Origin: an uncultured Oscillospiraceae bacterium
GTDB taxonomy: Bacteria > Bacillota > Clostridia > Oscillospirales > Acutalibacteraceae
NCBI GenBank assembly: GCA_900547305.1
Contig: URGH01000002.1
Location: forward strand, 8,829 to 72,828
Direction of reading: 5' to 3'
DNA length: 64,000 nucleotides
Part shown: positions 1 through 46,139 of the stretch, in pieces
How the letters are laid out: each line of letters opens with the position of its first letter
How positions within the stretch are numbered: position 1 is the first letter of the stretch
Made by a program: the position numbers and the translations under genes
The notes under the pieces: model-generated
Told to the model about the DNA's origin: nothing
Databases searched by the model: none
What the model saw: only the letters and a program-made list of their open reading frames with translations

Positions 1-2144
1 CCGTTTGAGTATGTAACCCGCACAACGCCCTCGGAAAGCACCTTATGCTCGGTAATACAGGCGCCCTCAACCGCTTCCATGGCTTTGGCTGTCTGTTCGT
101 ATACCGAACCGATTTTTTCTTTCCAATCGTCAAAGCAAAGCGAAAAATAATCGCTCATGGCAGTGCCTGTCAGAGAATAATTATCCGCCGCCATAACAAT
201 AAACGAGGGGTACACGCCGTATTCCACCAGCTTTAAAACCGTGCTTTGCGAGCAATAGCCCTGATTTATAAATTCCGAGTAATAATCCACGCTGCCTTTA
301 AGCACCATTTGCAAAAACGGAACGGTGTCGGTTTCAAACTGGTACTGGCTGTTGTTTACGGGAATATTAAAATAATCGTCCGTGTACTGCCAGCAATAAT
401 TATTGGGGTTGTAAAGCGCAACGTTATTATCTGTATTAAGCGCATTTGTAACCGTTTTAAGCGACTGCGTTCTCGTAGAAGCCGCCTTTTTGCTGTAATC
501 GGAATAAAGCGCCGAACCTACGCTGTCATAAGCAAAGCTCCATTCGCCGAATTTGCTCTTTGACAGCTTAAAAACATCGGCTATTCTTGAAATTTTCGCA
601 AAATACTTTGTGGGGTACATCCGGTCCTTATTAGCCGCGGTACGGCTTATAAAGGTCTCGTCTATACCGATCGCCGCGTCTGATGACATATAAATTTGAT
701 TTCCGTTTGCAAGCACCGGATCAAGATACAGATACATTCTCGAACCCATACTGTCCGTTTTATTTTTCAGATTCAAAAGGTTGCCTTTTCCGCCCGTCTG
801 CCGCCCGATTTTCAGCTTTCCGTATTTTGATTTATCGGTAGAGCCGCTCTGCCAGCCCCTGTATACAAGGGTCAGATTGTCAATTCCGTCGCCCGCCAGC
901 GATTCAACGATTTTTAAAGCCTGCCGCGTGGTGGTAAGGGTCTTTACCCTGTTGAAAATAAAGCCCTTTTTCACCGTAGAACCCGCAATTTCCAAACGCA
1001 GAGGCATTTTTTCATCATCCCGCTCCTTACCGAGCGTGCCGTTTTGCAGCAGCTGCTCGCGGTAAAGGTTCGCCATGCCCGAGTAATCGGCGGCAGCGCC
1101 GTTCAAAAAGTAAAAGGTCAGCTTGGGTTCAAGCCTGTTTACATTTTCCTGAACCACGGGTATTCCGCTGCCCGATACCGTCTTGGTATAAAGCTGACGG
1201 TAATTAAACCGAACCGACGCCCAGTTATAATCGGTTACGACCCCAGCGGGAGACGCAGTTACCGAAGCGTATTCCGCGCCCGATTCAACAACCGAAAGAA
1301 AAGCGTTCTGTTCGCTGCCGTGCGCTATACCGAAAACCGGCATTGTAACGGTGTTTGCGTCAACTAAATATTCGTTAATCCTGTTTGCCTGAAGCGTTCC
1401 CGCGGGCGCTAATGAATCAATAGAGCCGTCGACACCGTAAATCTTTTTATCAAAGCCGGTTATATAGCTTGAAGATTTTTTAAAACGCATAAGCGCTCCG
1501 CAGCCGTCGGGAATGAAGATATATCCGTTTATCTCATCCGTATAGCTGCTGCCCAGAAACGGCATAAAGTACAATGCCTTTATTTTTGCGTCGCCGTTTT
1601 CCTGCAGGCTGCCCTTTACCACCTCAAACGATAAAGAGCTGTCGTTAAGCGTTACCCTGAAATCGAAAACTATTCCGAGCTTTTTAGCGTTAAAGGTGCA
1701 TAAAAAGCCGTCGCTTTCCCATTCAAAAAACGATTTTACATCCCTTTCCGAAATGCTCAGGCGCGATTCGGAGCCGTTGGCGTTGTAATATTCAACCGAG
1801 CAGACCGAATTGGCAAAGTTTCTCCAGCCGCTGTTAAGTCCGTTCCCCTTTTCATCGGGAAGAGAACCCCATATATAACCGTTCGCCTTATCTACAATGC
1901 GTATGGAATAAACCGACGGGTTAAACCATATTTCAAGATATTCGCTCTCGCACTTTTTTTCGTAGCCGTCAAGCGACAGTCGGTTTTCCGCCTTAATATT
2001 CTCCGATACCTTTGTATGGCGGTTGGAGCGTATCTCAACAAGGTCAAAGCTGTTTTCGGTTTCCGCCGCCGGTGCGAGCCGTATGCCGCATACCGCGAAT
2101 GAGACCGCAAGCCAAATACTTAATACACGTTTAATGCCCCGCAC
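1..2144 (-). CDS. Large secreted hypothetical protein (possibly carbohydrate-active), 5'-partial: runs off the window start. GTG start at 2144, signal peptide MRGIKRVLSIWLAVSFAVCGIRLAPAAE.
   Basis: Manual reverse-strand translation is open from 2144 to position 1 with no stops. RBS GGGGAGG lies 7 nt upstream of the GTG. The N-terminus is a typical signal peptide. The gene overlaps the stop of the upstream gene by 14 nt. It is missing from the ORF track because it has a GTG start and no stop inside the window. Confidence 0.6.
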   Translation of the reverse strand, partial: MRGIKRVLSIWLAVSFAVCGIRLAPAAETENSFDLVEIRSNRHTKVSENIKAENRLSLDGYEKKCESEYLEIWFNPSVYSIRIVDKANGYIWGSLPDEKGNGLNSGWRNFANSVCSVEYYNANGSESRLSISERDVKSFFEWESDGFLCTFNAKKLGIVFDFRVTLNDSSLSFEVVKGSLQENGDAKIKALYFMPFLGSSYTDEINGYIFIPDGCGALMRFKKSSSYITGFDKKIYGVDGSIDSLAPAGTLQANRINEYLVDANTVTMPVFGIAHGSEQNAFLSVVESGAEYASVTASPAGVVTDYNWASVRFNYRQLYTKTVSGSGIPVVQENVNRLEPKLTFYFLNGAAADYSGMANLYREQLLQNGTLGKERDDEKMPLRLEIAGSTVKKGFIFNRVKTLTTTRQALKIVESLAGDGIDNLTLVYRGWQSGSTDKSKYGKLKIGRQTGGKGNLLNLKNKTDSMGSRMYLYLDPVLANGNQIYMSSDAAIGIDETFISRTAANKDRMYPTKYFAKISRIADVFKLSKSKFGEWSFAYDSVGSALYSDYSKKAASTRTQSLKTVTNALNTDNNVALYNPNNYCWQYTDDYFNIPVNNSQYQFETDTVPFLQMVLKGSVDYYSEFINQGYCSQSTVLKLVEYGVYPSFIVMAADNYSLTGTAMSDYFSLCFDDWKEKIGSVYEQTAKAMEAVEGACITEHKVLSEGVVRVTYSN

Positions 2145-4191
2145 GGTATACGCCCTCCCCGAAAATTTCCTTGATAAACACAACCAGCTGACCGAATAAC
2201 AAATATACAATGCAAACCGCCACAATAACCATAATCATAAAGAAGAAAACAAGAAATATATTCTTCACCGTCTCGCCGAAGCTGTAACGCTGAATATCCT
2301 TAACGCTCATAAAGACAAGGCAGGCAGCCCAGGCTATTACAAACAAACTGCCGAGATTTACAATAAAAGCCTCGTTGAGCGTAAGCCCGTAGCTTAAAAG
2401 CACAATAAACGGAGTAATAATTATATACGGCGCAAACGCATAAGCGGTTGCAACATAAATTTGCTTAAAGCTGCCCTCGCCCTCGTTTATGGTTCCTATC
2501 ATGTAATTTCCCGCAAGCCAAAGCAGCAGCGGAACCCAAAACATTATAAGCACCGAAACGGGGTTTGTTGTGCTGAGCTTCAGCACCCCGAAAAGATACC
2601 CCCTGCCGAGAACATCAAGCAGATACACGCCGAAAAACAGAAAGTATATAACCGTTGCGGTCATAACCGAGCCGTGCTCGCCGCGGCGCAGGTAATAGTA
2701 GCCGTCTATCGGGTGCCTGAGCATGGTTTTAATATACGCCGTTTCCTTTAAAAACCGTTTTGCTCCCGAAACGGGTTTTTCCGCCGCCCTGTTTTTATGC
2801 TTTTTCCGAAAAACGGAACGGATAATAAGCAAAGCTGCTATAAGAATAACGCATAAAAATATATAGCCTATATTACGGTTAAGCCACTCGTTGCGAAGCT
2901 CCCAAAATGCGTCGGAGTAGTATTCGGTGTTATTCGCGATTTTAAAATGCTCCAGCGCCGCTTTGTACTTCTGCTGGTAAAAAAGAGCCTTGCCGTAGCC
3001 CATATGAGCTATCTGCGACATTCCGTTCAGCCTTAAAAGCCCCGCCCATATTTCCTCGCTGCTTTCATAATCGCCCTTGTCAAGCGCCGCTACCGCGCTG
3101 TGGGTAAGGTTTGCAAAGTCGGTCGGGTAAAATACCTGAACCAGCGCCCTATCCTGGTCAAGCACATATAAAATTCCGCTTTCGTCGTCAACATCTATCG
3201 CAACCGCGTTGGTAAAAATTCCGTTGCGGTCGTCGTCATAAGCGCGCCCGCCGAAAGTGAACACAAGATTTCCCTGGCTGTCGTACTCGTTTATAATTCC
3301 CGTTTGGGTCACCGCAAAAACATTTCCGTATGGTCCCGCCGCCACATCGGTAAAATTCCATTCCTCTTTCATTTTGCCGCTTTCGGCAAATATGTTAAGC
3401 CCCGCCATGTTGTGCATTTTAAGGGTATCGTCCGATGTGGAGGCATATGTTATGCCCTGCATGTCGTCGCTTCTGGTAACGCTGAATATCAAGTCTTTCT
3501 GCGAAACGTCAATGTTATTTACCGGGCGCGGGGTGCGCACCATAAGCGTTTCCTTTTGCCTTGCGTTGTAAATAAGCTCCTGAAAACGCTCGGTCATGGT
3601 CATTTTGTATTTATTTGCGGCAAAGTACCCGAAAAATTTGCCCTTTGAGTTAAACTGCATAATTCCCTCGTAGGCGCCGTCACCCACAACAAAAATGTTC
3701 CCGACAGAGGAAACTGCAACCGCGCAGGGGGAATAAAGACTTGTTTTGCTGAACAAATAGCTTTCAGGTCTGCCTATTGTCATTTTAAGCCTATGCGAAG
3801 CGTCGTACACAAAAACCGCCTGCGCCTGCGGGTCGGCTGCGTAAACCGTTCCGTCGTCCGTAACAAAAAGTCCGTCGGGCGCTATAAGCTCATCGCCGCC
3901 GAAAAATTCGGTTTCGGAGCTTGCAATATCGTAAACCGCAATGCGGGCGTTGCCGCTGTCGGATATATACAGCTTTCCGTTTTTATAAAAAACATCGCCC
4001 GGCTGCGAAAGTCCCGTTCCCTTTGCGTATACCGCCGCTGGTATATAAGCGTCCTGGGTTTTTACCCACTCGCCGTCAACCGAAACCGTGTAGGTGTATG
4101 TGGTGTTATCGGAAGCATATACGTTAAAACCGCCCGAAATAACGGCGAGAACCGCCGAAATAACACAAAGGCGTTTCAGTATTTTGCGCAT
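2131..4191 (-). CDS. Membrane protein: signal peptide, NHL-repeat beta-propeller ectodomain, TPR-like segment, C-terminal Yip1-like multi-TM domain.
   Basis: 686-aa ORF with GGAGG RBS. Repeated DG..YV.D and NHL-like blades. The C-terminal 250 aa has 5-6 hydrophobic helices resembling Yip1/DUF1282. Confidence 0.6.
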   Translation of the reverse strand: MRKILKRLCVISAVLAVISGGFNVYASDNTTYTYTVSVDGEWVKTQDAYIPAAVYAKGTGLSQPGDVFYKNGKLYISDSGNARIAVYDIASSETEFFGGDELIAPDGLFVTDDGTVYAADPQAQAVFVYDASHRLKMTIGRPESYLFSKTSLYSPCAVAVSSVGNIFVVGDGAYEGIMQFNSKGKFFGYFAANKYKMTMTERFQELIYNARQKETLMVRTPRPVNNIDVSQKDLIFSVTRSDDMQGITYASTSDDTLKMHNMAGLNIFAESGKMKEEWNFTDVAAGPYGNVFAVTQTGIINEYDSQGNLVFTFGGRAYDDDRNGIFTNAVAIDVDDESGILYVLDQDRALVQVFYPTDFANLTHSAVAALDKGDYESSEEIWAGLLRLNGMSQIAHMGYGKALFYQQKYKAALEHFKIANNTEYYSDAFWELRNEWLNRNIGYIFLCVILIAALLIIRSVFRKKHKNRAAEKPVSGAKRFLKETAYIKTMLRHPIDGYYYLRRGEHGSVMTATVIYFLFFGVYLLDVLGRGYLFGVLKLSTTNPVSVLIMFWVPLLLWLAGNYMIGTINEGEGSFKQIYVATAYAFAPYIIITPFIVLLSYGLTLNEAFIVNLGSLFVIAWAACLVFMSVKDIQRYSFGETVKNIFLVFFFMIMVIVAVCIVYLLFGQLVVFIKEIFGEGVYRAGH

Positions 4192-4202
4192 TTATATACC
4201 TC

Positions 4203-5093
4203 CTACTTAATTCCGGAATGCATCATGGTATTCATAACACGGGACTGCATAATAATAAAAATAATCAAATTCGGCAAAAACAGTATAAGCGTTGCGGCGG
4301 CAGCCATACCCACGCCCGCAATTCCGCCCGCCGAGCCCGTAAGCGAGCTTATGTAAAACGGAAAGGTTTTCAGCGCCTCGTTATCTATATAAAGGGTTGA
4401 AGCCTCGGTTGCGCCCCATGCCGCCTGAAATGTGGTAATAGCCACGGTTGCAATTGCCGGGTTTACAAGCGGGAATACTATTTTCCGAATAATCGTATAG
4501 TCGGTAGCCCCGTCGATTACGGCTGCCTCTATAAGCGCGTCGGGCATTTGGTCTATATTCTGCTTTATAAGAAAAACGCCGGTTGGAGCCACAAGAAGAG
4601 GAATAATGTTGGAGAAGAAATTATCCTGAAGCCCCGTATAAATAATTACAAAATATCTTGGAATGGCAACCGCGGCGGACGCGAACATCATACCGAGGGT
4701 GTTTATTGTAAAGAGCAGCTTTTTACTTCTGAAATTCTTTTTTGAAAGCACATAGCCCGTGCAAACCGAAATAACCACCGTTAAAATAACGACCGCGGCG
4801 GTTGAAATTACGCTGTTAAACAAATACCTTGCCGCGGGCACGTCGGTATCGGCCGCCATTGCGAAAAGATCGCTGAAATTCTCCCATGTAGGGTTTTTAA
4901 CGTAAAATCTCGGCGGGTATGCAAACAGCTCGTCAATCGGTTTAAAGGCGTTAAAGAAGATAAAAACCAGCGGAAGAGCCATAACAAAGCATATGGGAGC
5001 CAAAATCAGAATGAATTTTATCTGACTGCGCGAAAAATGCTCGGGATTGATTCCGCCCGATTGGAGCGCGGTCTTCTTTTTTCGTTTTGACAT
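4203..5093 (-). CDS. Carbohydrate ABC transporter permease (MalG/LplC-like)
   Basis: 296 aa with 6 TM segments. EAA-loop motif IDGATDYTIIRKIVFPL. Confidence 0.9.
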   Translation of the reverse strand: MSKRKKKTALQSGGINPEHFSRSQIKFILILAPICFVMALPLVFIFFNAFKPIDELFAYPPRFYVKNPTWENFSDLFAMAADTDVPAARYLFNSVISTAAVVILTVVISVCTGYVLSKKNFRSKKLLFTINTLGMMFASAAVAIPRYFVIIYTGLQDNFFSNIIPLLVAPTGVFLIKQNIDQMPDALIEAAVIDGATDYTIIRKIVFPLVNPAIATVAITTFQAAWGATEASTLYIDNEALKTFPFYISSLTGSAGGIAGVGMAAAATLILFLPNLIIFIIMQSRVMNTMMHSGIK

Positions 5094-5117: not shown

Positions 5118-6008
5118 TCAGTCATCGCTCGAAAACAGCTTTTTGGCACCCTCGGACATTGCGTATACAAATATGAGCATAACAACCGAAATTGCCGCCG
5201 AATAACCCATTTCGTACCTCAGAAATCCAAAGTCCTCAATATGCGTGCCTATGAGCTGACCGGAGTAGTTGGGGGTCGGGTTTGCGCCCGAAAGGGTCGT
5301 TCCCACGCCGCCCGCCTGAAACGTGCCAACTATTGCCATGATGGCGCCGAAAAGCATTTGCGGCTTTGCAAGCGGAATGGTTATATAAATAATTTCCTGA
5401 AAACGGTTTTTAATTCCGTCAATATAACCCGCTTCGTACAGCTCGGTATTACCGTTGGTAATACCCGAAAGCATTGCAAGAAAGCCTATGCCCATGCTGC
5501 TCCAAAGGGTTACTATTATCATAATCGGCAATAAATATTTATCCGATTGAGCCCAGGCGACCGGCTGCTCTATAAAGCCGAGCTTTAAAAGCAGAGCGTT
5601 TAAGTAGCCGCTCTTATCGCCGTTGAATATTACCGTCCAAATAGTCGCAAGCATAACGCCGCCCGTCATTGAGGGCGCATAGATTATAATTGTTAAAAAC
5701 GTTCTTACAGGCCGCGTAAGCTGCGCCAGCATCCATGCAAGCAAAAAGGAAAGTATGTATCCCCCGATACCCGTAAATACGGCGTACACTACGGTGTTTG
5801 GCAAAACCTTTTGCATGAAAACCGAATCGTTGGTAAAAAGTGAAATATAGTTTTTCGCGCCTACAAAATCGGGGAACTGAATTGTGTTAAAATCGGTAAA
5901 GGAAAGCGCGATAGCCGCAACCGTGGGAAGAATTATAAACAGTACAAACAACAGCGCATAAGGAAAAAGCAAAACGAATACCGAATGTTTGTTTAAAAAT
6001 TTCTTCAT
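5118..6008 (-). CDS. Carbohydrate ABC transporter permease (MalF/LplB-like)
   Basis: 296 aa multi-TM. LplB-like N-terminus. RBS GGGGGAG before ATG. Confidence 0.9.
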   Translation of the reverse strand: MKKFLNKHSVFVLLFPYALLFVLFIILPTVAAIALSFTDFNTIQFPDFVGAKNYISLFTNDSVFMQKVLPNTVVYAVFTGIGGYILSFLLAWMLAQLTRPVRTFLTIIIYAPSMTGGVMLATIWTVIFNGDKSGYLNALLLKLGFIEQPVAWAQSDKYLLPIMIIVTLWSSMGIGFLAMLSGITNGNTELYEAGYIDGIKNRFQEIIYITIPLAKPQMLFGAIMAIVGTFQAGGVGTTLSGANPTPNYSGQLIGTHIEDFGFLRYEMGYSAAISVVMLIFVYAMSEGAKKLFSSDD

Positions 6009-8890
6009 TGCTTCTCCCCCTCGCTTTTCAGCAGCTTTACAAGGTCTGCGTATGTCATTACCGAATATTCCTTAACCGGGTTTCCCTGCGAATCGCAGAA
6101 GCCGAATTCCTGCATTTTACGCTTTATTTCGCGGTTGGAAAGTATCGCGGCGGAGTCTATGGACTCAACAAGCCCCTTTCCGTTTACAACAACATTGTTC
6201 CAAATGTTGCTTGTTTCCCGCTGAACCATATAAGAGGCGGCGTGCGGCGCGATTTCCTTTTGCGCTTCCCACTGGTTAAGAATTACCTGCTTGTGCTTTT
6301 CGGAATACGGCAGACTTTTAAACGCAACCAAATTTGCCGTGTTCCAGCGGTATTCGTTTCCGAGCGAGCTTTGCAGCAGCGTAGCGTAGCTTAGCTGAGT
6401 TTCCGAGGAAAGCCACCATTTCAAAAAGCTGTACGCCTCGTCGGGTTTATCGGTATCTTCAAGTATCATGCAGGCGGTTGAGTCCGCTATTTGGTACCTG
6501 AGCACCGAGCCGTCTGCCTGTTTTTCACCAGGCACCAAAGCCACATCCCAGTTTTCCGCAAGCTCGGGCGCTGCCAGTTCAAGCTGCAAATATGTTGAAA
6601 AGCCGCTTATTCCCAGCGGAATTTCACCGTAACGGAAGCTGTTGTAAAAATTCGCAACCGAATTTGAAACGCTGTAAATATTGTAAATATCGGTCATCTG
6701 CTCAAACGCGGTAACGGCGTTAAGCGAATCAAAAGCGACTTTCATCCCGTCCTTTTCGTAAAAATCGGCGTTGTGCTGATAAAGGAAAGGTCCCGTTACC
6801 GCCATTGATTTCATAGCGCCCGACGCCGAAAGCGGAAGATAAAAGTTCATATTGTACCGCAGCAAAAGCGGCATTAATGCCTTTACGTCGTCCCATGTTT
6901 CGGGAACATCCAGCCCCAGCGTATTAAGAATATCCTTTCTGTAATAAAGAATATTGAAATCCTGCGATTCGGTAGCGCCGTAAACCCCGTTTCCGTAGCA
7001 CATGGGCACCAGCGCTTCAAGATTGTACTCTTTATTGTAGAAATCCAGGAAACCGTCGTATTCAAGAAGATTTTTTGCCGCGCCCCTTATTGCAAGATTA
7101 AACGGCGTGCCGTAGCCCACGCCCAGCACTACGTCGGGATTGGTGCCTGCCGCGTTCGCAAGAACGAGCTTTTGCTCCCCTGTCATTACCGAAATTTCAA
7201 TATTTGTTCCGTGTTCGGAATTGTATTTTTCGTCTACCAGCTGCTGCAGGGTCTGAACATAGGGTATGGAGCTTTGCATCCACACCTTAAGCTCGCTGCT
7301 TTTTTTGTTTTCGGTTTTATTACCGAACGATTTAATAAAGCGCTTGAGCCCCTCTGTAAGCGATGTCCAAAATGTGACCCTCGCGGGCGGAAGCTCCGTT
7401 TCGCCGCCTATGTAAATTCTGTCAAGCGCAACCGACTGGTTAACCATTTTTCCTATTACGGTTCCGAGGTACTTGCTCACCGAGCTGTCGCCCATGCTTA
7501 TATCGGCGGCCTTATTCGGAATAGTGCGCGAATCCTTTGCTATTTTTTCAAGAAGCCCCGCGGCATATAAAAGGTCGTTCGCCCACACAGGCTCCTTGCC
7601 GCCGAGCTTTGCAAGCTCCTTATAAAACGCGTTCGCGCGCTCCGCATAGGATTTAAGGTCGGAAACCGCGTCAGGGAAATACGCCTCGGTATCCCATGTG
7701 CGGTTTTTATCAACCGAGGATGACGCCAGCTTATTTATATCCATGCCGAACCGATTTACGTCTTCCATAAGCGCGAGTATTCCGCTGTATATCTCCGCTA
7801 AGGGACCCATTGTAACGCACAGAGAAACAGTGTGGCTGCCCGCTTTCAGATAAATATAAGCGGGCTTGCCGTCTGCCTTTAATGTGAAATTTGAATATGT
7901 ATTTGACTTTGTTTGCGGGAACTCTATGCCGTTCATTTCCTCAAACAGCGCCTTGCCGTCTATTTCCATATTCCTGTAAACCGGCATATTCGTAGACGCG
8001 TTTTGCTTATACCTGAACGAAACGGCGTAAAGTCCGTCGCTCGGCGCCTCAAATTCCCAAACCGCCTTTTGCCCTACGCTCGACCAATCCTCGGAAAGAA
8101 TGTTTATGCGGCTGCAGTAGGTTTCGTAAGGATAAAGCGCCGCGTTTTTGACAGACGCGCCGCGTACCGACGAATCGTTTTTCACTGCGTAGCGCTCACC
8201 CTCTACCGCTATCGGTTCGGCGTAAAATTTTCCCTTTACTGACTCACTGTACTGCGCATAAGACGGCAAAGCACGCGGCTTGGCAATATAAAAGGCTCTG
8301 ACGTATATACTCTGAACATTGTTTTTAACCGTTACCCTGTGCCGCCCCGCTTCAAGCTCCAAAGAAATTGCAGAGCGGTTTAAATCGGTATAATTTTCAA
8401 AAGCGGCAATAACCCACTCCTCTATCGGCGTTTGGGCTGCCGGCAGCTCGTTTCCGTCGCGGTCCAGCGCGTACTGTTCCTCTTTATCCCTGCGCAAAAC
8501 GGGCAGCAGACTCGTAAAATCTTCTCCGTCAACCGTAAGCGCAAACAGGCTGTTGGTCATTTTATCGTCGGTAATCTTATATTCGCAGGCAATTTGGTAT
8601 GTACCCTTTTCTTCCGCTGTAAACTCAAAGGTCAGGGCGTCGTTTTCCTTAAAAAGAAAGTCACTGCTGCCCGCTGTGCCGTTAAGGGCGACATTTTCCG
8701 AAGAAACCGAAATACCGCTTTTAAAGTTTTCGGAATCGCTGTAATTTTTAACCGCCAATCCCGAATAGCTTGTCGGTCTTTTCAGCGTTTTATCGGTATT
8801 AACCGCCTTTGCCGAGGGCGTTACGGCGCAAACAGCCGCCAAAACCGACGCCAACACAGCCGAAACGGCGCTTTTAAAATGCCTGACCAT
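6005..8890 (-). CDS. Extracellular solute-binding protein (family 1, LplA-like) fused to an N-terminal ~400-aa tandem beta-sandwich (CBM-like) duplication
   Basis: 961 aa. Signal peptide. Two internally similar ~150-aa modules (FEFTAEEKGTYQIACEYK...AGRHRVTV and WEFEAPSDGLYAVSFRYK...AGSHTVSL). They are followed by a ~550-aa SBP_bac_1-like region. GGAGG RBS. Confidence 0.8.
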   Translation of the reverse strand: MVRHFKSAVSAVLASVLAAVCAVTPSAKAVNTDKTLKRPTSYSGLAVKNYSDSENFKSGISVSSENVALNGTAGSSDFLFKENDALTFEFTAEEKGTYQIACEYKITDDKMTNSLFALTVDGEDFTSLLPVLRRDKEEQYALDRDGNELPAAQTPIEEWVIAAFENYTDLNRSAISLELEAGRHRVTVKNNVQSIYVRAFYIAKPRALPSYAQYSESVKGKFYAEPIAVEGERYAVKNDSSVRGASVKNAALYPYETYCSRINILSEDWSSVGQKAVWEFEAPSDGLYAVSFRYKQNASTNMPVYRNMEIDGKALFEEMNGIEFPQTKSNTYSNFTLKADGKPAYIYLKAGSHTVSLCVTMGPLAEIYSGILALMEDVNRFGMDINKLASSSVDKNRTWDTEAYFPDAVSDLKSYAERANAFYKELAKLGGKEPVWANDLLYAAGLLEKIAKDSRTIPNKAADISMGDSSVSKYLGTVIGKMVNQSVALDRIYIGGETELPPARVTFWTSLTEGLKRFIKSFGNKTENKKSSELKVWMQSSIPYVQTLQQLVDEKYNSEHGTNIEISVMTGEQKLVLANAAGTNPDVVLGVGYGTPFNLAIRGAAKNLLEYDGFLDFYNKEYNLEALVPMCYGNGVYGATESQDFNILYYRKDILNTLGLDVPETWDDVKALMPLLLRYNMNFYLPLSASGAMKSMAVTGPFLYQHNADFYEKDGMKVAFDSLNAVTAFEQMTDIYNIYSVSNSVANFYNSFRYGEIPLGISGFSTYLQLELAAPELAENWDVALVPGEKQADGSVLRYQIADSTACMILEDTDKPDEAYSFLKWWLSSETQLSYATLLQSSLGNEYRWNTANLVAFKSLPYSEKHKQVILNQWEAQKEIAPHAASYMVQRETSNIWNNVVVNGKGLVESIDSAAILSNREIKRKMQEFGFCDSQGNPVKEYSVMTYADLVKLLKSEGEKQ

Positions 8891-9023: not shown

Positions 9024-10574
9024 TTACTTGTGCTTTGCTTTCCATTCCTTTTGAACGTTAGCCAGCTTTTTATCGAAATCATCCCAATAAACCTTTAATG
9101 CCTTGGTAGCCTTTGCTTCAAGATCCTTAGCGGAAGAATCGGGGTCCTTAGTGCCGTCCTGAACCTTCATGGAAACAACGTTTATAACGTCCGCCCACAT
9201 CTGTCCGAAAGAGGGATAAATCTTATCGGGGTCGCCGCGGAAGCAGTTGGATATGTTGTTATACATGTACAGCTGCACCTCGTCGTCCGCAAACAGCTTT
9301 TTCGCCGCCGACACCACATCCGGGTGTGTGGTAACGGGGGTATAATAATCGAGATTGAGCTTATAGCTGCTCTTGCCCTTTGCCTTGTCGGTATAGGCGT
9401 TCAGTCTTGCCTTGTTGCCCTCGGAGCTGTATGTCATAAAGCTCAATACCTTAAACGCCTCGTCGGGCACCTTTGTATCGGCAAGCATAAACGCGTGGTC
9501 TATATGAATAGGCATACGCCCCTTTATCGCCTGCGGATACGGGTGGAAAGTCCACTTGCAGTTTTTAAGCAGGGTTTCATAATATTCCTTTGAGTATGTA
9601 CCCTTTTCAAAGTCCATCATAACGGTTCTGCCGAGCTTTGTTGCCGCCCATTCATCGTCCGAACCGAAACGGCTTACATATTTATTTGCAAGGCGGAGAC
9701 TGTAACCTTCAACATTCGGTGTTTGTCTCAGCTTTCTGAACAGAGTCCATGCTTTGGCAAGCGAGCCAGTCATTTCAAAGGAACGGGTATCCGCGTTGTA
9801 TCCGCAGATTCCTACATTCTTCTGATACGCTCCCGCCATATAATAATCAAGGTAAAACAGTCTTTCGCAGAAAGAATATTTATCGTTTGAGGTGGCAGTC
9901 GCAAATTTTGTCATATCGTCGGGCGTCCAGTCAAGCGCCGGAACGTCAACGTTCATCGCGTCCAAAGCGTCCAGATTTAAGGCAACGCAGGTAAAATACG
10001 CCTGGTGCGGCAAAGCGTAAACCTCACCGCCGTATGTATAGTCTTTCATTATATTCGACGGAACGTATTTATACTCGGGGTCTGCTTTCACATATGAGGT
10101 AATCGGGTATACAAGTCCCTGACCTATAAACAGCGGAAGATTCGCAATATCGTCGAAAACTATATCCGGCAACTGACCCGAGGTTGATTTTGCGGCGATA
10201 TATTCCTGCGAGTTGGGCGCGCTGTAATGGTCTACCTGAACCTTTATATTCGGGTATTTTTTTGCAAGCGCGTCAAAAAGCGGCGCCGTGTCGGTCGGTC
10301 TTTGAGAAGAAATCGCAACCTTAACCGTTGTTTTGCCGTTTGCAGTGCTGCCTTTCCCGCCCGAGGTGCTGCCGCCCGCGGTGTTGCCCTTACTGCCCGA
10401 CGCGGTCGTATCCTTATCGGAAGTGCTGCCGCCCGACGTTTTGCTCCCGGAAATCACAACGTCATCGCTCAGATAATAGCTGTATGACTTAGGATTTTTG
10501 CGGCATCCGCCCACGGTCACCAAAGAAAAAACCGCCAACACAACAGCCGTTAAACGAATACTGACTTTTTTCAT
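9024..10574 (-). CDS. ABC transporter solute-binding lipoprotein with Gly/Ser/Thr-rich linker
   Basis: 516 aa. Lipobox LVTVGGC. Low-complexity GS-rich linker, then an SBP fold. Confidence 0.8.
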   Translation of the reverse strand: MKKVSIRLTAVVLAVFSLVTVGGCRKNPKSYSYYLSDDVVISGSKTSGGSTSDKDTTASGSKGNTAGGSTSGGKGSTANGKTTVKVAISSQRPTDTAPLFDALAKKYPNIKVQVDHYSAPNSQEYIAAKSTSGQLPDIVFDDIANLPLFIGQGLVYPITSYVKADPEYKYVPSNIMKDYTYGGEVYALPHQAYFTCVALNLDALDAMNVDVPALDWTPDDMTKFATATSNDKYSFCERLFYLDYYMAGAYQKNVGICGYNADTRSFEMTGSLAKAWTLFRKLRQTPNVEGYSLRLANKYVSRFGSDDEWAATKLGRTVMMDFEKGTYSKEYYETLLKNCKWTFHPYPQAIKGRMPIHIDHAFMLADTKVPDEAFKVLSFMTYSSEGNKARLNAYTDKAKGKSSYKLNLDYYTPVTTHPDVVSAAKKLFADDEVQLYMYNNISNCFRGDPDKIYPSFGQMWADVINVVSMKVQDGTKDPDSSAKDLEAKATKALKVYWDDFDKKLANVQKEWKAKHK

Positions 10575-10575
10575 G

Positions 10576-13500
10576 TTAAGAACTCCTTTTCTGAATTTTA
10601 TCGGAACGTTTTTTCAAACGCAGCGAAACGAGCAATGCCACCGCCGCAAGACCGGTAATAACCGCGGCGGCAAAAAGCGGGAAACGGTCGCCGGTGCGTG
10701 GCTCATAGCGCCCGCCGCCGTTTTCTCCCTTTCCGAAGAGCCACCCGTACTTGCCGTTCGGATTTTTTCCGTAATCAACGCCGATTATTTCCGCCCGACT
10801 TCCGTCGTCCTCTTCCTCGCCTATCAGCGGGTCGTTGGGTTCGAACGTATCGGGCAGGTTATCGTGCTCCTCAAGGGTGATAACGTTTCCATCGTAATCA
10901 AGCGTTGTTATGCTTAAATTATCGTACATAGCCATATTCTTATTGCTCATAAAGCCTATGTAACCGCCCGTGTAGCCCTCTCGCAAAGCGCACTCGTGAA
11001 CCTCTGTTCCGTCAATTTCAAGTACCGCTTTGAGCTTTGTAACCGTCAGCGTCATATGGTGCATTTGGGAATCCCATGTCCGTGCGTAATCCTTGAATTC
11101 AGAGGCGGAAACCGATTCGCCGTAGCTGTTGGTATCGCGCACAAGCTGTCCTCTGAAACGCGCGCTGCCCTCCATTGTGAGGTATGCCGCGGCTCCGCCG
11201 CCGTTGTAGGTCAGATAGGTATCGGGGTCCTCTATTCCGAAAACCACCATTGCCTGACCCCAGGTATTTGCGCCCTGACGGAAATCAACATCAAGCCTGA
11301 AATTCCTGAATGTGCGCCCGGTATAAATCAAAGACTCTATTTCGTCATGGTCGCCCACGTTTCCTGCCGAGTCCTTACGCCTTATGGCGCCGCCGTCCAT
11401 ATAATATACGGAATCTATCGTGGTTCTTATATAATCCTCCGCTTTTGGGTTCGGGGAATACATATTTACCCAATTCTTATTAAAATCGCTCAATGCGTCT
11501 ATAAAGAACTTAACCGTTGTTGAAATGTTATAATCAACCGTTACCGTAACCTTAACGCTTGCGGCTATTCCGTCGGGGTTGATAAGGGTTTTGTTTACAG
11601 GAAGAACCGGTGTTCCCTTAAAGGTAAAGGTGCCGGGGTAGCTCGGTATGTAATCGTCGCTCGACCATTCTATCTTCCGTGTAACCGTTTCGCCCTTATC
11701 TGTGGTAACTTTCAGCGTTTCGGGCAAATTCAAAAGATTTGTGTTGCTGTTTTCTGCGGTTCTTTCCCACTTGATATCGTTAACCTTTTCTATCGAAACA
11801 ATTTTGCTCTGCTTTTCGGGGTCAATTTCCATTTTATCGTAATCGGTCACGGAGAAGTTATCGAAGTAGGAACCGGCGCTTATGCCGTTCACCATGGAAA
11901 TAAAGCCATCAACGCTTCCTACGTCTATATTGCTTAAAACCTCTGTTCCGTTTATCGTAACGCTCGCCTTACCTCCGATAACCGCAAGCTCGATTTTAAA
12001 CTCAAAATTGTTCGCCTCATGGTTAAACACCGCCTTACCCGCGCAGTCATGAATATACCAATCGTCAAAATTCACCTTTACGTCGGCGGCGCTTCCGAGA
12101 TATACAGCAGTCGCCGTTTCAGATTCGTTTCTGAATCCCAGCGTAAAGCCGCCGTTGCTCTTCATTCCCTTACCCTGCTCGCCGACGGTTATTGCATTGT
12201 AACTCGTGCCCCACATAGGCATATACGCGTCAACTGTAAGGTAAAAATCCCTGAATTTCTGGTTCTTGTAGGTATAATAAGCCATGTGCCAATACGGGCG
12301 GTTGCCGTTCTCCCACGGATTTTTTTCGGTGCCCGCGTCAAAAACTCTTTCAAGCCTGTTTTTGTTGAGATTAATATATTTCGACGGGTCGTTTGTTATA
12401 TCCGTAAGTGAATTTTCAGCCGTTTCGCCCGTATCGTAGTAGAAATTGAAGTCGCGGGTTATAAGACTGCTGTCACCGCTGCTGTTGAAATTGGTGGAAT
12501 ATCTGCCGTTTTCCTCGGTTCTCTCAAACGGAGCTTCTTTCACGGTATTTATAAACGAAAAGTTATCAAACGCCCCCTGCCAGTCAGCGGCAAGATTGTA
12601 ACCGAGCGTTACCGACGCATAATATGCCGCAGCTTCAAGTCCGCTTTTTTCAAGCGCCTTTTCTCCGTCTATATAAGCGGCGGCGGTGCCGTTTTCAAAT
12701 GTTATCTTTACATTTACTGTTTTTTCCTTACTTGTAACAGCCCCGTGCGCGGCGGTACTATCCTGCTTTATATAGAAGAAGTCCAAATCCTGCCGTGCCT
12801 CGGCGGCGTTTCCGAGGAATAAATCGTATTTCTTTTCAAACGCGTTGTACTTCATGGCAAGGGTAAAGCCCGAGGCGTATATTGTGCCCTCGGTATCGGG
12901 CGCGAAGTGCAGCATTTCAAAGCCGTCGTGCGTGCTTGTTAAATCAACCGAAAACTCAAAATTCTTGAAGCTTTGGTTTTTGTAGTAAAAATACAGCTGC
13001 TGCCAGTAGGGTCTTCTGCCGTCCGTCTCTGTTTCCGAGGGGGCGTTCGTCCTCACAATGCGCCCGCCCGAAACGGCGGCATATGCGGCAAGCTCGGACA
13101 TATTAAGCTCTTTCGGAGAACTTGATACCCAATTTTCATGGTCGTAGCGTACTGTAAAGTCATTTCCGAGAGCATTGGAAAGACTATCGGCGTCAAGGTT
13201 ATTTGTATATTTTCCGTCCTCCTCGGTGCGCTCGAATGCAGCCTTAACGCTTTTAATTTTAAAATTATCAACAGCGCCTTGCCAATCTTCCGCCAGGTTA
13301 TAACCAAGCGTTACCGCAGGATAATAGTCGGCAGTTTCAAGTCCGCTTTTTTCAAGCACTCTTTCGCCGTCTATATAAGCGGTAGCGGTACCGTTATAAA
13401 ATACTATTTTAACGTTTACGGTTTTTTCCTTCCCGGTAACAGTCGCGTGCGCGGCGGTACTTTCCTGCTTTACATAGAAGAAATCCAAATCCTGCCGCGC

Positions 13501-14022
13501 CTCTCCCGCGTCTCCTAAGAATAAATCGTATTTCTTTTCAAACGCGTTGTACTTCATGGCAAGGGTAAAGCCCGAAGAATATATTGTGCCGTCGGTAGCA
13601 GGGGCAAAGTGCAGCATTTCAAAGCCGTCGTGCGTGTTTGTTAAATCAAGCGAAAGCTCAAAGTTTTTAAAGCTCTGATTTTTATAATATAAATACACCT
13701 GCTGCCAATAAGGCCGCCTGCTGTCGTTGGGATTCTCCGACGGGGCGTTTATCCTGGTCAGCCTGCCGTCAGTCAGCGCGAGATATTTCCCCGCCTCGGC
13801 GACCGACAGCTTTTCCGGAGTGGCGGAAACCCAATTTTCATTATCATATCGGATTTCAAAATCGTTTCCGAGCGCCGCCGCCAAATCCGCGGCGTCAAAG
13901 TCGTTTTCGTAAACGCCGTCGCTTTCGGATCTCGCCGCCATTGCGAACTGAGAAACCGGTAACGCGCAAATCAGCAATATAAGCGCCAAAAGTGAAGCTG
14001 TTATTCTGTCTCTCTTTTTCAT
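10576..14022 (-). CDS. Giant C-terminally membrane-anchored surface protein with four LamG/DUF1080-like jelly-roll modules and an Ig-like domain
   Basis: True start is the ATG at 14022 (RBS GGGAGG), not the TTG at 14055. Signal peptide. Modules end with DUF1080-like G.IG....Y.N(F/L)S(I/F) motifs. C-terminal acidic linker plus a single TM helix and KKRSDKIQKRSS tail. Confidence 0.8.
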   Translation of the reverse strand: MKKRDRITASLLALILLICALPVSQFAMAARSESDGVYENDFDAADLAAALGNDFEIRYDNENWVSATPEKLSVAEAGKYLALTDGRLTRINAPSENPNDSRRPYWQQVYLYYKNQSFKNFELSLDLTNTHDGFEMLHFAPATDGTIYSSGFTLAMKYNAFEKKYDLFLGDAGEARQDLDFFYVKQESTAAHATVTGKEKTVNVKIVFYNGTATAYIDGERVLEKSGLETADYYPAVTLGYNLAEDWQGAVDNFKIKSVKAAFERTEEDGKYTNNLDADSLSNALGNDFTVRYDHENWVSSSPKELNMSELAAYAAVSGGRIVRTNAPSETETDGRRPYWQQLYFYYKNQSFKNFEFSVDLTSTHDGFEMLHFAPDTEGTIYASGFTLAMKYNAFEKKYDLFLGNAAEARQDLDFFYIKQDSTAAHGAVTSKEKTVNVKITFENGTAAAYIDGEKALEKSGLEAAAYYASVTLGYNLAADWQGAFDNFSFINTVKEAPFERTEENGRYSTNFNSSGDSSLITRDFNFYYDTGETAENSLTDITNDPSKYINLNKNRLERVFDAGTEKNPWENGNRPYWHMAYYTYKNQKFRDFYLTVDAYMPMWGTSYNAITVGEQGKGMKSNGGFTLGFRNESETATAVYLGSAADVKVNFDDWYIHDCAGKAVFNHEANNFEFKIELAVIGGKASVTINGTEVLSNIDVGSVDGFISMVNGISAGSYFDNFSVTDYDKMEIDPEKQSKIVSIEKVNDIKWERTAENSNTNLLNLPETLKVTTDKGETVTRKIEWSSDDYIPSYPGTFTFKGTPVLPVNKTLINPDGIAASVKVTVTVDYNISTTVKFFIDALSDFNKNWVNMYSPNPKAEDYIRTTIDSVYYMDGGAIRRKDSAGNVGDHDEIESLIYTGRTFRNFRLDVDFRQGANTWGQAMVVFGIEDPDTYLTYNGGGAAAYLTMEGSARFRGQLVRDTNSYGESVSASEFKDYARTWDSQMHHMTLTVTKLKAVLEIDGTEVHECALREGYTGGYIGFMSNKNMAMYDNLSITTLDYDGNVITLEEHDNLPDTFEPNDPLIGEEEDDGSRAEIIGVDYGKNPNGKYGWLFGKGENGGGRYEPRTGDRFPLFAAAVITGLAAVALLVSLRLKKRSDKIQKRSS
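12540..13908 (-). repeat. Intragenic tandem duplication of ~690 bp (two ~230-aa modules, near-identical at the DNA level)
   Basis: Long identical strings recur about 698 bp apart, for example cttttcaaacgcgttgtacttcatggcaagggtaaagcccga at ~12833 and ~13531. Confidence 0.7.
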
Positions 14023-14081: not shown

Positions 14082-15362
14082 TTAAATTACTTTCTTTTCA
14101 ACGCAGCGCTCCGCAAATTCGCAGAAAAGCGCGTCGGACCATGTAAAGAACTCGCGTTTAAACTTTTTCGGGTCGTCGGGATCAAAGCACTCGTGCATAT
14201 ATCCGGTATCCGCGTCGGCTGAAATCAGCGTGTCAAGCACATTCCGCATTTCTTCCGCGTCCTCCGAGGTCAGCCCCTGCATCGAAAGCCCCATGTGCCA
14301 TATATATCCTGTGTATTCATGCGGGGATCCGAGCCCGCTCGCAAAGCTGCCCTTGTAGTAATATGGGTTATCGTCGCTTAAAATAAACCTGCGGGTGTTT
14401 TTATAAACCTCGTCAAGCTCGGCTGTGTTGAAGCCTATATACGGCAAAGATAAAAGACTCGGTGTGTTTGCGTCGTCCATAAACTCGTAATTCCCCAGCC
14501 CGTCGGTTTCATAGGCGAAAATTTTACCGTATTTTTCATGCTCTGTAATACCGTATTTTTTAACCCCGTCAAGTATTTCCTGCCGCAGCCTTTCCGCTCT
14601 TTCGGCAACTTCGGGCGCGCAGTTTTTTAAAAGCTCGCTTACATAGCCGAGAACCACATAAGCAAAAATATTCCCGGGAATGTTGTAGCCGTAGCTTACC
14701 GCGTCATCGGACGGTCTGAAACCCTGCCACGTCATTCCGGTATATCCTACCGGCTCGCCCATTCCGTTATTGTGCAGCGTATCGTTATACCTATCTGTTT
14801 CCCTCGAAAACCTGTATTCCGATTTTTCAAAATGGTGCTGCTCGGTTTCCAAAACATCAAGTACGGTTTTCACGGTGCCCGGCAGAACCTCCTCTATAAA
14901 CGCTCCGTCGCCCGTTACCTTATAATATTTGTAAATCAGCCGCAGCGGATATGAAAGCGAATCAAGCTCGTATTTTCTTTCCCAAACCCAAGGCGATTTG
15001 CGGGGAATATCCTCTGTGTGTCCCCTGTCGCTCGGCTGCTCGTTGAAGGCATTCGCATACGGATCTACCGCTATATATGAAAACTGCTTTTTTATAACGC
15101 TGCGAATAAGCCCGCCGATTTCGGGGTCATTTGCAAAACAGACGTAATTCCAAAGCTGCGCCGAGGAGTCTCTCAGCCACATGGCGGGAATATCGCCCGA
15201 AACCAAATAATCGCTGAGCGTTCCGTCCTCTCTGCGGGAAAACGCGTCAAATGTATGTAAATAGCAGTTTCTGTAAAGCCTTGCCAGCTTCGGAGAATAC
15301 TCTTTCATCACACTCTCGTATTTTTCTAAATGCTCTTTTATCATCGGGCAAATGTCCATGTC
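14082..15362 (-). CDS. GH125-family exo-alpha-1,6-mannosidase-like protein (DUF1237)
   Basis: WLRDS motif (PAMWLRDSSAQLWNYV). Size is ~427 aa from the ATG at 15362, which has an AAGGAG RBS. The supplied ORF is extended into the 5'UTR. Confidence 0.7.
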   Translation of the reverse strand, partial: DMDICPMIKEHLEKYESVMKEYSPKLARLYRNCYLHTFDAFSRREDGTLSDYLVSGDIPAMWLRDSSAQLWNYVCFANDPEIGGLIRSVIKKQFSYIAVDPYANAFNEQPSDRGHTEDIPRKSPWVWERKYELDSLSYPLRLIYKYYKVTGDGAFIEEVLPGTVKTVLDVLETEQHHFEKSEYRFSRETDRYNDTLHNNGMGEPVGYTGMTWQGFRPSDDAVSYGYNIPGNIFAYVVLGYVSELLKNCAPEVAERAERLRQEILDGVKKYGITEHEKYGKIFAYETDGLGNYEFMDDANTPSLLSLPYIGFNTAELDEVYKNTRRFILSDDNPYYYKGSFASGLGSPHEYTGYIWHMGLSMQGLTSEDAEEMRNVLDTLISADADTGYMHECFDPDDPKKFKREFFTWSDALFCEFAERCVEKKVI

Positions 15363-15409
15363 TTTTCTCCTTACGTTTTCAATTGCTGACAAATATTTTT
15401 TACCGTCCG

Positions 15410-15551
15410 TTTTAGTGAAACGGTTAATGGCGCATTTTATTATATTCAAAAAAATATAAATGTTACTTTTAGTGATTTTTATTATATCATGTGTTTTAAA
15501 GTTTGTAAAGTACTTTTTTTAAATTAGTTAATCTTAATCGTTTCACTAAAA
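15410..15551. promoter_or_regulatory. Pair of 18-bp inverted repeats (TTTTAGTGAAACGGTTAA / TTAATCGTTTCACTAAAA) bracketing the GH125 promoter. Candidate operator.
   Basis: 17/18 bases are complementary. One copy lies at about -50 and the other at about +55 relative to the predicted -10. Confidence 0.35.
15481..15509 (-). promoter_or_regulatory. Sigma-A-type promoter for the GH125 operon (TTTACA-17-TATAAT on the minus strand)
   Basis: Minus-strand -35 TTTACA and -10 TATAAT separated by a 17-nt spacer. Confidence 0.4.
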
Positions 15552-44346: not shown

Positions 44347-46104
44347 ATGTCTTCAACTACTATACTTTTAATGGTAGCCGAGCTTTTCGGCGGGCTTGCG
44401 TTCTTCCTTTACGGAATGTCAATGCTGTCGGGCGGGCTTGAAAATCTGACCGGCGGCACCTTGGAGCAAACCTTGAAAAAGGTCACCCGAAACCCGTTTT
44501 TAAGCTTTTTCCTCGGCGCAGGCATAACCATTGCAATACAGTCGTCATCCGCTATGACGGTTATGCTTGTAGGTCTTGTAAACTCGGGCATAGTGGATTT
44601 TTGCGATACCTTCGGCGTTGTTATGGGCTCAAACGTGGGCACCACCCTTACCGCGTGGCTTTTAAGCCTTGCGGGAATAGGCGGGGACAATTTCTTCCTG
44701 ACATTGCTAAAGCCCATGACCTTTGCCCCCCTGCTTGCGTTTATCGGTATTCTTTTCAGAATGATTTCAAAGGAAGAAAAGAAGAAAAATATCGGGCTTA
44801 TTTTCATAGGCTTTGCCATTCTTATGACCGGCATGGACTTTATGAGCAACTCTATGAGCTCCGTGCAAGATATGAAAGGCTTTCAAAGCCTGCTTACGGC
44901 GTTCAGCAGCCCGATAATAGCGCTTTTAATCTCGATTCTTTTCACCGGAATAATTCAGTCCTCCGCCGCCACTATAGGTATAGTTCAGGCTTTGGCGCTT
45001 ACGGGTGCCATAACCTACGAAATGGCAATACCGCTGGTGCTCGGCGCCAATATCGGCACCTGCATTACAGCCTTTCTTTCAAGCTTCGGAACAAACAGAA
45101 ACGCAAAACGAGTTGTGGCGCTGCATATATACGTAAATGTTCTCGGCTCGGTTGTATGTATGATAATTCTTTACATACTCAAAGCCGTGGGCGTGGGCGT
45201 TTTATCAATGACCGTCTCTATGTTCGGCGTTGCAATTATCCACACGCTGTTTAACCTTGTTAACACAATAGTGCTTGTTCCCTTTAAAAAGGCTATCTAC
45301 AAGCTGTGCGAGCTTACCGTTAAGGGCGATAACGATAAAACGCATACCGTTTTTCTGGACGAGCGTTTGTTCAACAACACCGCTCTTGCGGTATCCGAAT
45401 GTCACCGCCTTACAAACGAAATGGCGGAGCACGCAAGAGACTCGCTTACAAAGGCTATCGGGCTTATATCGTCCTACAAAGCCGAAACCGCGCAATACAT
45501 CCGCGAAAACGAGGAGCTTATTGATAAATATGAGGACAAGCTCGGCACTTACTTAGTAAGGCTCAGCAACAACGAGCTTTCGGAAAACACCTCCCACTCA
45601 ATTGCCCGTATGCTCCACAGTATAGGCGACTTTGAGCGAATAGGCGACCACGCGCTCAATATTTGCAAGGTTGCCGAAGAAATGCACAATAAAAACATTC
45701 ATTTTTCGGATGAGGCAAAAAAAGAGATTGCCGTTATAACAAACGCCGTTACCGAAATACTCAATATGACGGTGGATTCGTTTATAAACGACGATATAGA
45801 GCTTGCCTCTCACGTTGAGCCGCTTGAGCAGGTTATAGATAAGCTCAATAAAAAACTTAAAGCCCGCCATGTCGCAAGGCTTCAAAACGGCGAGTGCACC
45901 ATTGAGCTGGGCTTTGTGTTTACCGACCTGTTAACCAACTATGAGCGCGTTTCCGACCATTGCTCAAACGTTGCGGTTTACACCATGCAGCTGCCGAGCG
46001 ATAAGCTGGACGCGCACAAGTACCTTGCAAAAATCAAAAACGCCGAAACCGGCGCGTTTGTCGACGATTTCAATATGTACGCCGAAAAATATTCGCTTAC
46101 TTGA
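44347..46104 (+). CDS. Na/Pi cotransporter family protein with C-terminal PhoU-like domain
   Basis: 585 aa. Duplicated NptA-type TM repeats plus PhoU-like helices. Confidence 0.85.
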   Translation: MSSTTILLMVAELFGGLAFFLYGMSMLSGGLENLTGGTLEQTLKKVTRNPFLSFFLGAGITIAIQSSSAMTVMLVGLVNSGIVDFCDTFGVVMGSNVGTTLTAWLLSLAGIGGDNFFLTLLKPMTFAPLLAFIGILFRMISKEEKKKNIGLIFIGFAILMTGMDFMSNSMSSVQDMKGFQSLLTAFSSPIIALLISILFTGIIQSSAATIGIVQALALTGAITYEMAIPLVLGANIGTCITAFLSSFGTNRNAKRVVALHIYVNVLGSVVCMIILYILKAVGVGVLSMTVSMFGVAIIHTLFNLVNTIVLVPFKKAIYKLCELTVKGDNDKTHTVFLDERLFNNTALAVSECHRLTNEMAEHARDSLTKAIGLISSYKAETAQYIRENEELIDKYEDKLGTYLVRLSNNELSENTSHSIARMLHSIGDFERIGDHALNICKVAEEMHNKNIHFSDEAKKEIAVITNAVTEILNMTVDSFINDDIELASHVEPLEQVIDKLNKKLKARHVARLQNGECTIELGFVFTDLLTNYERVSDHCSNVAVYTMQLPSDKLDAHKYLAKIKNAETGAFVDDFNMYAEKYSLT

Positions 46105-46129: not shown

Positions 46130-46139
46130 AGCTTTGCAA

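Follow-up and report, generated by a model that had tools for sequence, protein, structure and literature searches.

We analyzed a 64,000-nt stretch of DNA from an uncultured Oscillospiraceae bacterium (hereafter, the window), with attention to a gene that encodes an 1148-aa surface protein containing four jelly-roll modules. The original prediction, made from the DNA alone, had described an anchored protein of this length at positions 10576 to 14022 without stating the strand. We found that the open reading frame (ORF) is real and complete and lies on the minus strand (10576..14022), with its ATG at 14022, a ribosome-binding site (GGGAGG) 6 nt 5' of the ATG, and a stop codon at 10576-10578. 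A protein 100% identical to its translation is present in public data (P0002). Residues 1-30 (13933..14022, minus strand; MKKRDRITASLLALILLICALPVSQFAMA/A) are predicted to form a signal peptide, as judged from a hydrophobicity scan and from an AxA cleavage site (AMA/A) identified by eye in the sequence. Apart from this signal peptide, the only strongly hydrophobic stretch in the protein comprises residues 1114-1134. Two other identities were considered and ruled out: the protein is not a lipoprotein, because Ile occupies position -1 of the would-be lipobox, and it is not a cohesin-bearing scaffoldin, because no cohesin or dockerin match was obtained in the protein. A scan of the whole 1148-aa protein against NCBIfam likewise gave no match.

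The remainder of the protein is divided as follows, with all coordinates on the minus strand. Module 1 (residues 31-262; 13237..13932) and module 2 (residues 263-494; 12541..13236) belong to a subtype of ConA-like β jelly roll that we term A, and module 3 (residues 495-730; 11833..12540) belongs to subtype B. A spacer follows (residues 731-830; 11533..11832), which contains a Big_4 bacterial Ig-like domain (PF07532) at residues 753-804 that scores 27.4-30.7 bits compared with a Pfam cut-off of 22.1, in agreement with the Ig-like domain predicted to precede module 4. Module 4 (residues 831-1045; 10888..11532), assigned to subtype C, is a jelly roll of the DUF1080/PF06439 type that lacks the DUF1080 active site. 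It is followed by a Gly/Asn-rich linker (residues 1046-1106; 10705..10887), delimited by composition and acidic as originally described (16 D/E compared with 7 K/R in 68 residues), in which the motif DPLIGEEEDDG is kept in four relatives (L004, P0005, P0044 and P0055). The C-terminal segment (residues 1107-1148; 10579..10704) is a putative cell-wall sorting signal.

We then compared the modules, each of which is ~215-235 aa in length, with one another. Modules 1 and 2 had been called near-identical; this was an overstatement, as they share 73% identity in protein (BLASTP, 73.2% over 224 aa, E 1e-128) and 73.5% in DNA. Module 3 is indeed diverged, being 23-26% identical to modules 1 and 2 (BLASTP, E 2e-20 and E 4e-24, respectively), and the similarity between modules 4 and 3 is marginal at the level of BLAST (E 2e-4). 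For profile comparisons, we assembled 20 non-redundant modules of the module 1-3 type (alignment A1, in which module 3 aligns throughout) and 21 modules of the module 4 type (alignment A2), both drawn from the window and its relatives. Comparison of the two profiles by hhalign yielded a probability of 99.1% (E 3.9e-19) over 201 columns, and the A1 profile matched the 1148-aa protein in four stretches in an exhaustive profile search. A closing strand of the form (V/F/Y)DN(F/L)(K/S)(I/F/V) is common to all four modules, so that the shared strand noted in the original prediction is present, whereas the preceding 'G.IG' that was described as part of it occurs in module 4 only. The four modules are thus homologous ConA-like jelly rolls.

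Structural models were consistent with this assignment. AlphaFold2 models of module 1 (pLDDT 95.6) and module 4 (pLDDT 91.6) are both all-β jelly rolls, and the structural neighbours of both include DUF1080 proteins, CBM66, GH16 enzymes and L-type lectins; the lectin domain of staphylococcal Aap was also recovered among the neighbours. For module 4, the fold search listed YesU (17.0), the GALC lectin domain (17.0), the DUF1080 protein BT3469 (16.9) and CBM66 (16.6), together with the DUF1080 structures 3HBK, 3U1X, 3H3L and 3IMM (15.5-16.6), and Foldseek described a generic ConA-like jelly roll with TM values of 0.5-0.6. The modules can be superposed on solved DUF1080 structures, and the folds are therefore not unrelated to those first proposed.

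Assignment to the DUF1080 family itself held for one module. PF06439 (DUF1080, '3-keto-disaccharide hydrolase') matched residues 877-1038 in module 4 with 41.7 bits compared with a gathering threshold of 26.8, and no other module passed this threshold, module 1 scoring 16.5 bits. The 20 modules of subtypes A and B gave only sub-threshold Pfam matches, distributed among PF06439 (12/20, best E 3.7e-5), Laminin_G_3 (11/20) and TS_C (10/20). Against PDB sequences, the A1 profile produced only chance-level matches (best E 0.23), and the A2 profile weakly matched DUF1080 structures (3IMM at E 1e-3, then 4JQT, 8V31, 3U1X and 3H3L), neurexin LamG domains and the C-terminal domain of a levanase. Of the named families, DUF1080 is nearest to the modules, and CBM66 lies at about the same structural distance. 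Within the ConA-like/DUF1080/CBM66 group, modules 1-3 constitute a rare, divergent and uncharacterised branch, no member of which has been solved.

The rarity of this branch was apparent in two database searches. A word-indexed search of 5.8 billion proteins returned 18 relatives, and an exhaustive profile search of 1.84 billion representatives returned 45 at E <= 1e-3, 16 of them at E <= 1e-30; the module 1-3 subfamily is accordingly very rare. With module 4 as the query, the word-indexed search gave a single match (P0083), and relatives of the module 4 type were taken from the exhaustive profile search. The relatives with a named source came from human gut metagenomes (Hadza samples), an 'uncultured Clostridia bacterium' metagenome-assembled genome (MAG; L004) and an 'Acutalibacteraceae bacterium' MAG (P0083). 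The number of tandem modules in relatives ranges from 1 to 7, and it differs even between close strains: a 91%-identical orthologue of the window protein (P0001, 1384 aa) carries one extra subtype-A module and was counted as having five jelly rolls ahead of Big_4, module 3 included, and six overall. The modules are also found together with dockerins (P0006-10, P0013-18, P0046, P0049 and P0052), SGNH/GDSL esterases (P0004, P0011, P0043, P0051 and P0053), a GH31 domain (P0047) and a SASA-like esterase (P0059). On account of these variable tandem arrays and of the fusions to dockerins, esterases and GH31, we consider that the modules behave like carbohydrate-binding modules (CBMs).

We next examined the C-terminus, which reads GGGRY-EPRTG-D-RFPLFAAAVITGLAAVALLVSL-RLKKRSDKIQKRSS and comprises a pentapeptide (E1107-P-R-T-G1111), a hydrophobic helix (F1114-L1134) and a positively charged tail. 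This is the tripartite arrangement of a sorting-type ending (xPxTG, ~20 hydrophobic residues and a positive tail), with E rather than L as its first residue, and no other ORF in the window has such an ending. The original prediction had described a single hydrophobic anchor with a basic tail and no LPXTG. The helix, the tail and the literal absence of LPXTG were all found; however, the EPRTGD of the window protein occupies the same site as the LPxTG-type motifs of its orthologues. Relatives with the same cassette of Big_4, module 4 and acidic linker end in ALPKTGDRFPL... (P0055), PLPTTGDKLPV... (P0044) and SIPPTGDDFPL... (L004), and more distant relatives carry TPSTGD (P0060), SPKTGE (P0072) or SPGTGA. 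We therefore interpret EPRTGD, which stands where orthologues have LPKTGD, LPTTGD or IPPTGD, as a likely variant of a sortase cell-wall sorting signal in which the first residue is variable; this appears more likely than a simple membrane anchor. An anchor of the plain transmembrane kind was rejected as a candidate because the orthologous tails carry LPxTG. Use of LPxTG anchoring has been reported for the Acutalibacteraceae, called a related family (PMC12997984). The EPRTGD signal would be processed by sortase, and if it were left uncleaved, the protein would remain held in the membrane by its helix, so that the modules would be displayed on the surface either way.

The genes on both sides of the surface-protein gene lie on the same (minus) strand and point to sugar uptake. 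Directly upstream is a gene for a GH125 exo-α-1,6-mannosidase (14082..15449; PF06824, 466 bits), which confirms the neighbour named in the original prediction and which matches the solved structures of the enzymes from C. perfringens (E 1e-130) and S. pneumoniae (E 4e-116). The enzyme has no signal peptide and is cytoplasmic, and its sugars must therefore be imported first. Its listed ORF starts at a TTG located ~30-50 codons before similarity to the solved structures begins (query residue 52 aligns with chain residue 25), and translation probably begins at an internal Met instead, either M31 or M36. A GH38 partner gene, which most of the GH125 loci described so far possess, is not adjacent here. 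Downstream, only 1 nt lies between the stop codon of the surface-protein gene and the start codon of a gene for a 516-aa sugar solute-binding protein (SBP) of the lipoprotein type (9024..10574), which has the lipobox ...TVGGC, matches sugar ABC SBPs in the PDB (E 6.5e-10) and has an orthologue in another genome (L001) that carries SBP_bac_1. This gene is followed by one for a 961-aa SBP fusion (6005..8890), in which an N-terminal region of ~500 aa precedes SBP_bac_1 (PF01547, 90.5 bits, residues 545-832), and by genes for two ABC sugar permeases (5118-6008 and 4203-5093; PF00528 in both). The N-terminal half of the fusion has no confident family, a weak Golvesin_C match being the only one, and the presence of two binding proteins for one permease pair, with a large fusion as one of the two, is unusual.

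Two further genes complete the set. The first encodes a 686-aa membrane protein (2131..4191) with a signal peptide, NHL/SGL β-propeller repeats, TPR and a C-terminal multi-pass Yip1 domain (Pfam; Yip1, 46.6 bits). The second encodes a DUF5696 protein (3..2120; PF18952, 512 bits), which has an N-terminal hydrophobic segment, extends past the window start and occupies the same position in L001; a literature search gave no paper mentioning this domain. The gene order GH125, module protein, SBP, SBP fusion, two permeases, NHL/Yip1 and DUF5696 recurs in two other genomes. In one of these genomes (L001), four modules resembling subtype A are combined in the module protein with Big_4 and a tail reading PAKTGD; in the other (L004), three modules of subtype B accompany Big_4 and module 4 in the syntenic orthologue, whose tail reads IPPTGD. 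We also identified a second type of conserved locus, with the order NHL/Yip1, DUF5696, permeases, GH31, GH31, module protein, LacI, GH31-dockerin and GH3. Its module-protein slot is variable and is filled by dockerin-bearing paralogues; across strains (L002, L005, L006 and L007), it holds either two or three modules with a dockerin, or three modules with an SGNH esterase. The NHL/Yip1 protein is kept in all related loci (synteny of L001, L004, L005 and L007), and it recurs together with DUF5696 and two ABC permeases across related gut Clostridia, in loci of the GH125 type and of the GH31/GH3 type alike. Elsewhere in the window, we noted an ordinary TPP riboswitch (46132-46250, plus strand, 59.6 bits), which lies immediately 3' of a gene for a Na/Pi-cotransporter/PhoU-domain protein (44347-46104), and an ordinary tRNA gene (48232-48304, minus strand).

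The original prediction had offered two functions for the array, namely multivalent lectin-like glycan capture or an unrecognised catalytic activity, and had named 3-keto-sugar substrates for screening. To examine catalysis of the DUF1080 kind, we used the conserved residues of BT2157, which are E103, N134, E164, Q166, Y190, K245, Q273 and H275 and which include a Ca2+ site (bioRxiv 10.1101/2024.03.25.586180). We located the NSG, ExQ and QDH motifs in solved DUF1080 chains, which mapped five of these eight residues (N134, E164, Q166, Q273 and H275); for the BT2157 structure 3OSD, the chain index plus 25 equals the published numbering for N134, Q273 and H275. In the A2 profile alignments, module 4 has G922, A945, Y947, M1025 and N1027 at these five positions, respectively, and the corresponding columns are unconserved across the alignment of module 4-type sequences. 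The GH16 motif ExDxxE, searched for as E-[ILV]-D-[IVAF]-[VILMF](0,1)-E, is absent from the whole 1148-aa protein. Because these residues are missing, neither a PF06439 match nor the label 'family 16 glycoside hydrolase', which NCBI attaches to a 73%-identical fragment, implies catalysis here.

A specific form of the catalytic hypothesis is that module 4, or all of the modules, acts like BT2157 as a 3-keto-glycoside 1,2-lyase or 3-keto-2-hydroxy-glucal hydratase. The PF06439 score of module 4 and the DUF1080 structures found nearest to its profile in the PDB (3imm at E 1e-3) are in its favor, but the five replaced residues are not those of such an enzyme. Moreover, Pfam detected no Gfo/Idh/MocA oxidoreductase and no TIM-barrel lyase in the operon that could serve as a partner. 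The sole gene of the Gfo/Idh/MocA fold among the window ORFs scanned encodes a GH109-like protein of 409 aa (51608-52837, plus strand), in which Glyco_hydro_109_C (183 bits) accompanies a GFO_IDH_MocA NAD-binding domain. Although its presence in the window could be counted in support, it is located 37 kb away on the opposite strand, among housekeeping genes and beside lepA, and its product is a cytoplasmic, oxidising glycosidase of the NAD-dependent type, which has no signal peptide and is unlinked to the surface protein. It is also implausible that a partner dependent on NAD would work outside a Gram-positive cell. We therefore regard activity on 3-keto sugars as highly improbable.

Taken together, the missing DUF1080 residues, the missing GH16 motif and the CBM-like behaviour of the modules in relatives favor a non-catalytic, glycan-binding role, which is the first of the two functions originally offered; judged from sequence, catalysis by the modules is unlikely. 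We propose, with moderate confidence, that the protein is a wall-anchored, multivalent glycan-capture protein that serves the neighbouring sugar importer. The protein would be secreted and then probably linked covalently to peptidoglycan by sortase through its variant (E)PxTG signal. A stalk consisting of the acidic linker, module 4 and Big_4 would project the three further modules, and the four non-catalytic modules, of three subtypes (A, A, B and C), would bind glycan multivalently. Bound glycan might thereby be concentrated beside the two co-transcribed SBPs and the ABC permeases; oligosaccharides could then be handed to the lipoprotein SBP and the SBP fusion and imported, after which GH125 would remove α-1,6-mannose as they are trimmed in the cytoplasm. 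From the neighbouring genes, the ligand is probably an α-mannose-containing glycan, for example an N-glycan or a mannan from fungi or the diet.

Six observations weigh against parts of this proposal. Three concern the anchor: the sorting signal begins with Glu in place of Leu; the tail scores 13.9 bits (E 0.065) with the LPXTG_anchor model TIGR01167, which is below the cut-off of 15.9 (compared with 17.6 bits, a passing score, for P0044 and 15.8 bits for P0060) and has no match to PF00746; and no sortase gene with a TLxTC-type signature was found among the ORFs of the window. A fourth concerns the ligand, as subtypes A and B are present in GH31/GH3 loci as well as in GH125 loci, and the genomic context consequently suggests, but does not fix, an α-mannoside. 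The remaining two concern catalysis. Pfam revealed no recognised secreted depolymerase or endo-glycanase in the operon, and thus some protein encoded here must release importable oligosaccharides, unless the substrate is already small. In addition, several relatives consist only of one or two modules and a dockerin (P0049 and P0006-10), an architecture that would suit a catalytic module too.

These last two observations are what might be expected if one or more of the modules were an unrecognised jelly-roll endo-glycanase or lyase similar to GH16 or PL7, supplying the extracellular depolymerase that the locus lacks. Strong conservation of several polar and aromatic residues in subtypes A and B (R73, Y75, W76, K84, N85, Q86 and D222, in module numbering) is also compatible with an active site, as is, at face value, the NCBI name given above. 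However, that name is a generic one for PF06439-type domains and not a test of activity; the ExDxxE motif and the DUF1080 residues are absent; positions invariant across the whole module family are few and mostly structural-looking; and tandems of variable copy number fused to true catalytic domains are typical of binding modules rather than of catalytic modules. The DUF5696 protein, with its predicted signal or anchor segment, is moreover another candidate for the extracellular enzyme that is missing from these loci. We accordingly consider an endo-glycanase or lyase activity of the modules to be unlikely. A broader version, in which modules 1-3 would found a new family of jelly-roll endo-glycanases or lyases, one that provides the missing depolymerase of both the GH125 and the GH31 loci, with arrays that mix catalytic and binding copies, seems to us quite unlikely. 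That modules 1-3 form a new CBM family is plausible, and such a family with a new specificity (e.g. for α-1,6-mannan or the N-glycan core) would be considerably more likely than a new family of endo-glycanases or lyases.

We also considered the possibility that the protein is mainly an adhesin by which the cell attaches to surfaces coated with glycans (for instance yeast cells, plant particles, or the mucus and glycoproteins of a host), with nutrient capture being secondary or absent. The architecture, a multivalent lectin array on a stalk with a sortase-type anchor, would suit this function; the structural neighbours include L-type lectins as well as the lectin domain of staphylococcal Aap, and related organisms come from human gut metagenomes. 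On the other hand, the gap of 1 nt to the transporter genes and the synteny with GH125 and the ABC importer, which is kept in three genomes, tie the protein to sugar uptake, and its paralogues in glycan-utilisation loci carry dockerins and are parts of enzyme complexes. A primary role in adhesion is therefore rather improbable, and we retain glycan capture for the importer as the preferred interpretation.

If the modules do bind glycans, modules 1-3 would constitute a new CBM family that is distantly related to both DUF1080 and CBM66 and confined to a few Clostridia of the human gut. A sortase-anchored glycan binder serving an ABC importer would then be, among Gram-positive bacteria, the counterpart of the SusE/F-type binders known from Bacteroidota. 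The results may also aid the annotation of a recurrent, uncharacterised type of locus that combines NHL/Yip1, DUF5696, a large SBP fusion and permeases with either GH125 or GH31/GH3, and they advise caution in reading family names in these loci as evidence of enzymatic activity.

The protein proposed here is of a kind already known, namely a surface-anchored glycan-binding protein with several modules that is encoded in a sugar-uptake operon of a Gram-positive bacterium, and no new mechanism is required. Among known families, the DUF1080 proteins, which include BT2157 (BT2; PDB 3OSD/8TDA) and the JCSG structures 3IMM, 3HBK, 3H3L, 3U1X and 4JQT, resemble module 4 in that it passes the Pfam threshold and in that they are the best PDB matches of its profile, and the framework motifs Y..x.F.NFeL.vD and G.I.L....v.F.N(I/L).I. 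are held in common. The window protein differs in that the catalytic and metal-site residues (NSG, ExQ and QDH) are absent, modules 1-3 fall below every Pfam threshold, the modules form a four-fold array on a Gram-positive surface protein instead of a single periplasmic enzyme, and oxidoreductase or lyase partner genes are missing. CBM66, represented by the module of the B. subtilis levanase SacC (PDB 4B1M/4AZZ), offers a second comparison: it is a non-catalytic ConA-like module found on varied glycan-active enzymes, and a weak profile match to the C-terminal domain of the endolevanase LevB1 was obtained (E 0.024). One member of the family, CsCBM66 from Cohnella, is a xanthan-binding module (PMC11002231). 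However, sequence identity to CBM66 is only 11-13%, the modules here are ~215-235 aa compared with ~160 aa, and it is not obvious how the known ligands (fructan ends and lyase-treated xanthan) would relate to a GH125 locus.

At the level of the whole system, surface glycan-binding proteins are known both as the SusE/F-like proteins of Bacteroidota and as the multi-CBM proteins of gut Firmicutes that are anchored by sortase or dockerin. The window protein would resemble them as a non-enzymatic, multi-domain surface binder that is encoded inside a transporter and glycosidase operon and that presumably raises the local glycan concentration, whereas its fold family and mode of anchoring are unlike those of the SusE/F lipoproteins. 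In S. pneumoniae, the N-glycan system comprises the GH125 enzyme SP_2144, the ABC importer NgtS/P1/P2 and the LPXTG-anchored EndoD (PMC5215778). Both systems combine a cytoplasmic GH125 and an ABC oligosaccharide importer with sortase-anchored surface proteins that act, or in our case would act, first on the glycan. The pneumococcal anchored proteins are enzymes (GH85, GH33, GH2 and GH20), whereas the window protein has no recognisable catalytic domain, and GH125 is paired there with GH38, GH92 and GH20, whereas no GH38, GH92 or GH85 gene is present in the operon here. The pneumococcal N-glycan system is nevertheless the nearest described logic for the locus, with its LPXTG-anchored surface proteins, its ABC importer and its cytoplasmic GH125.

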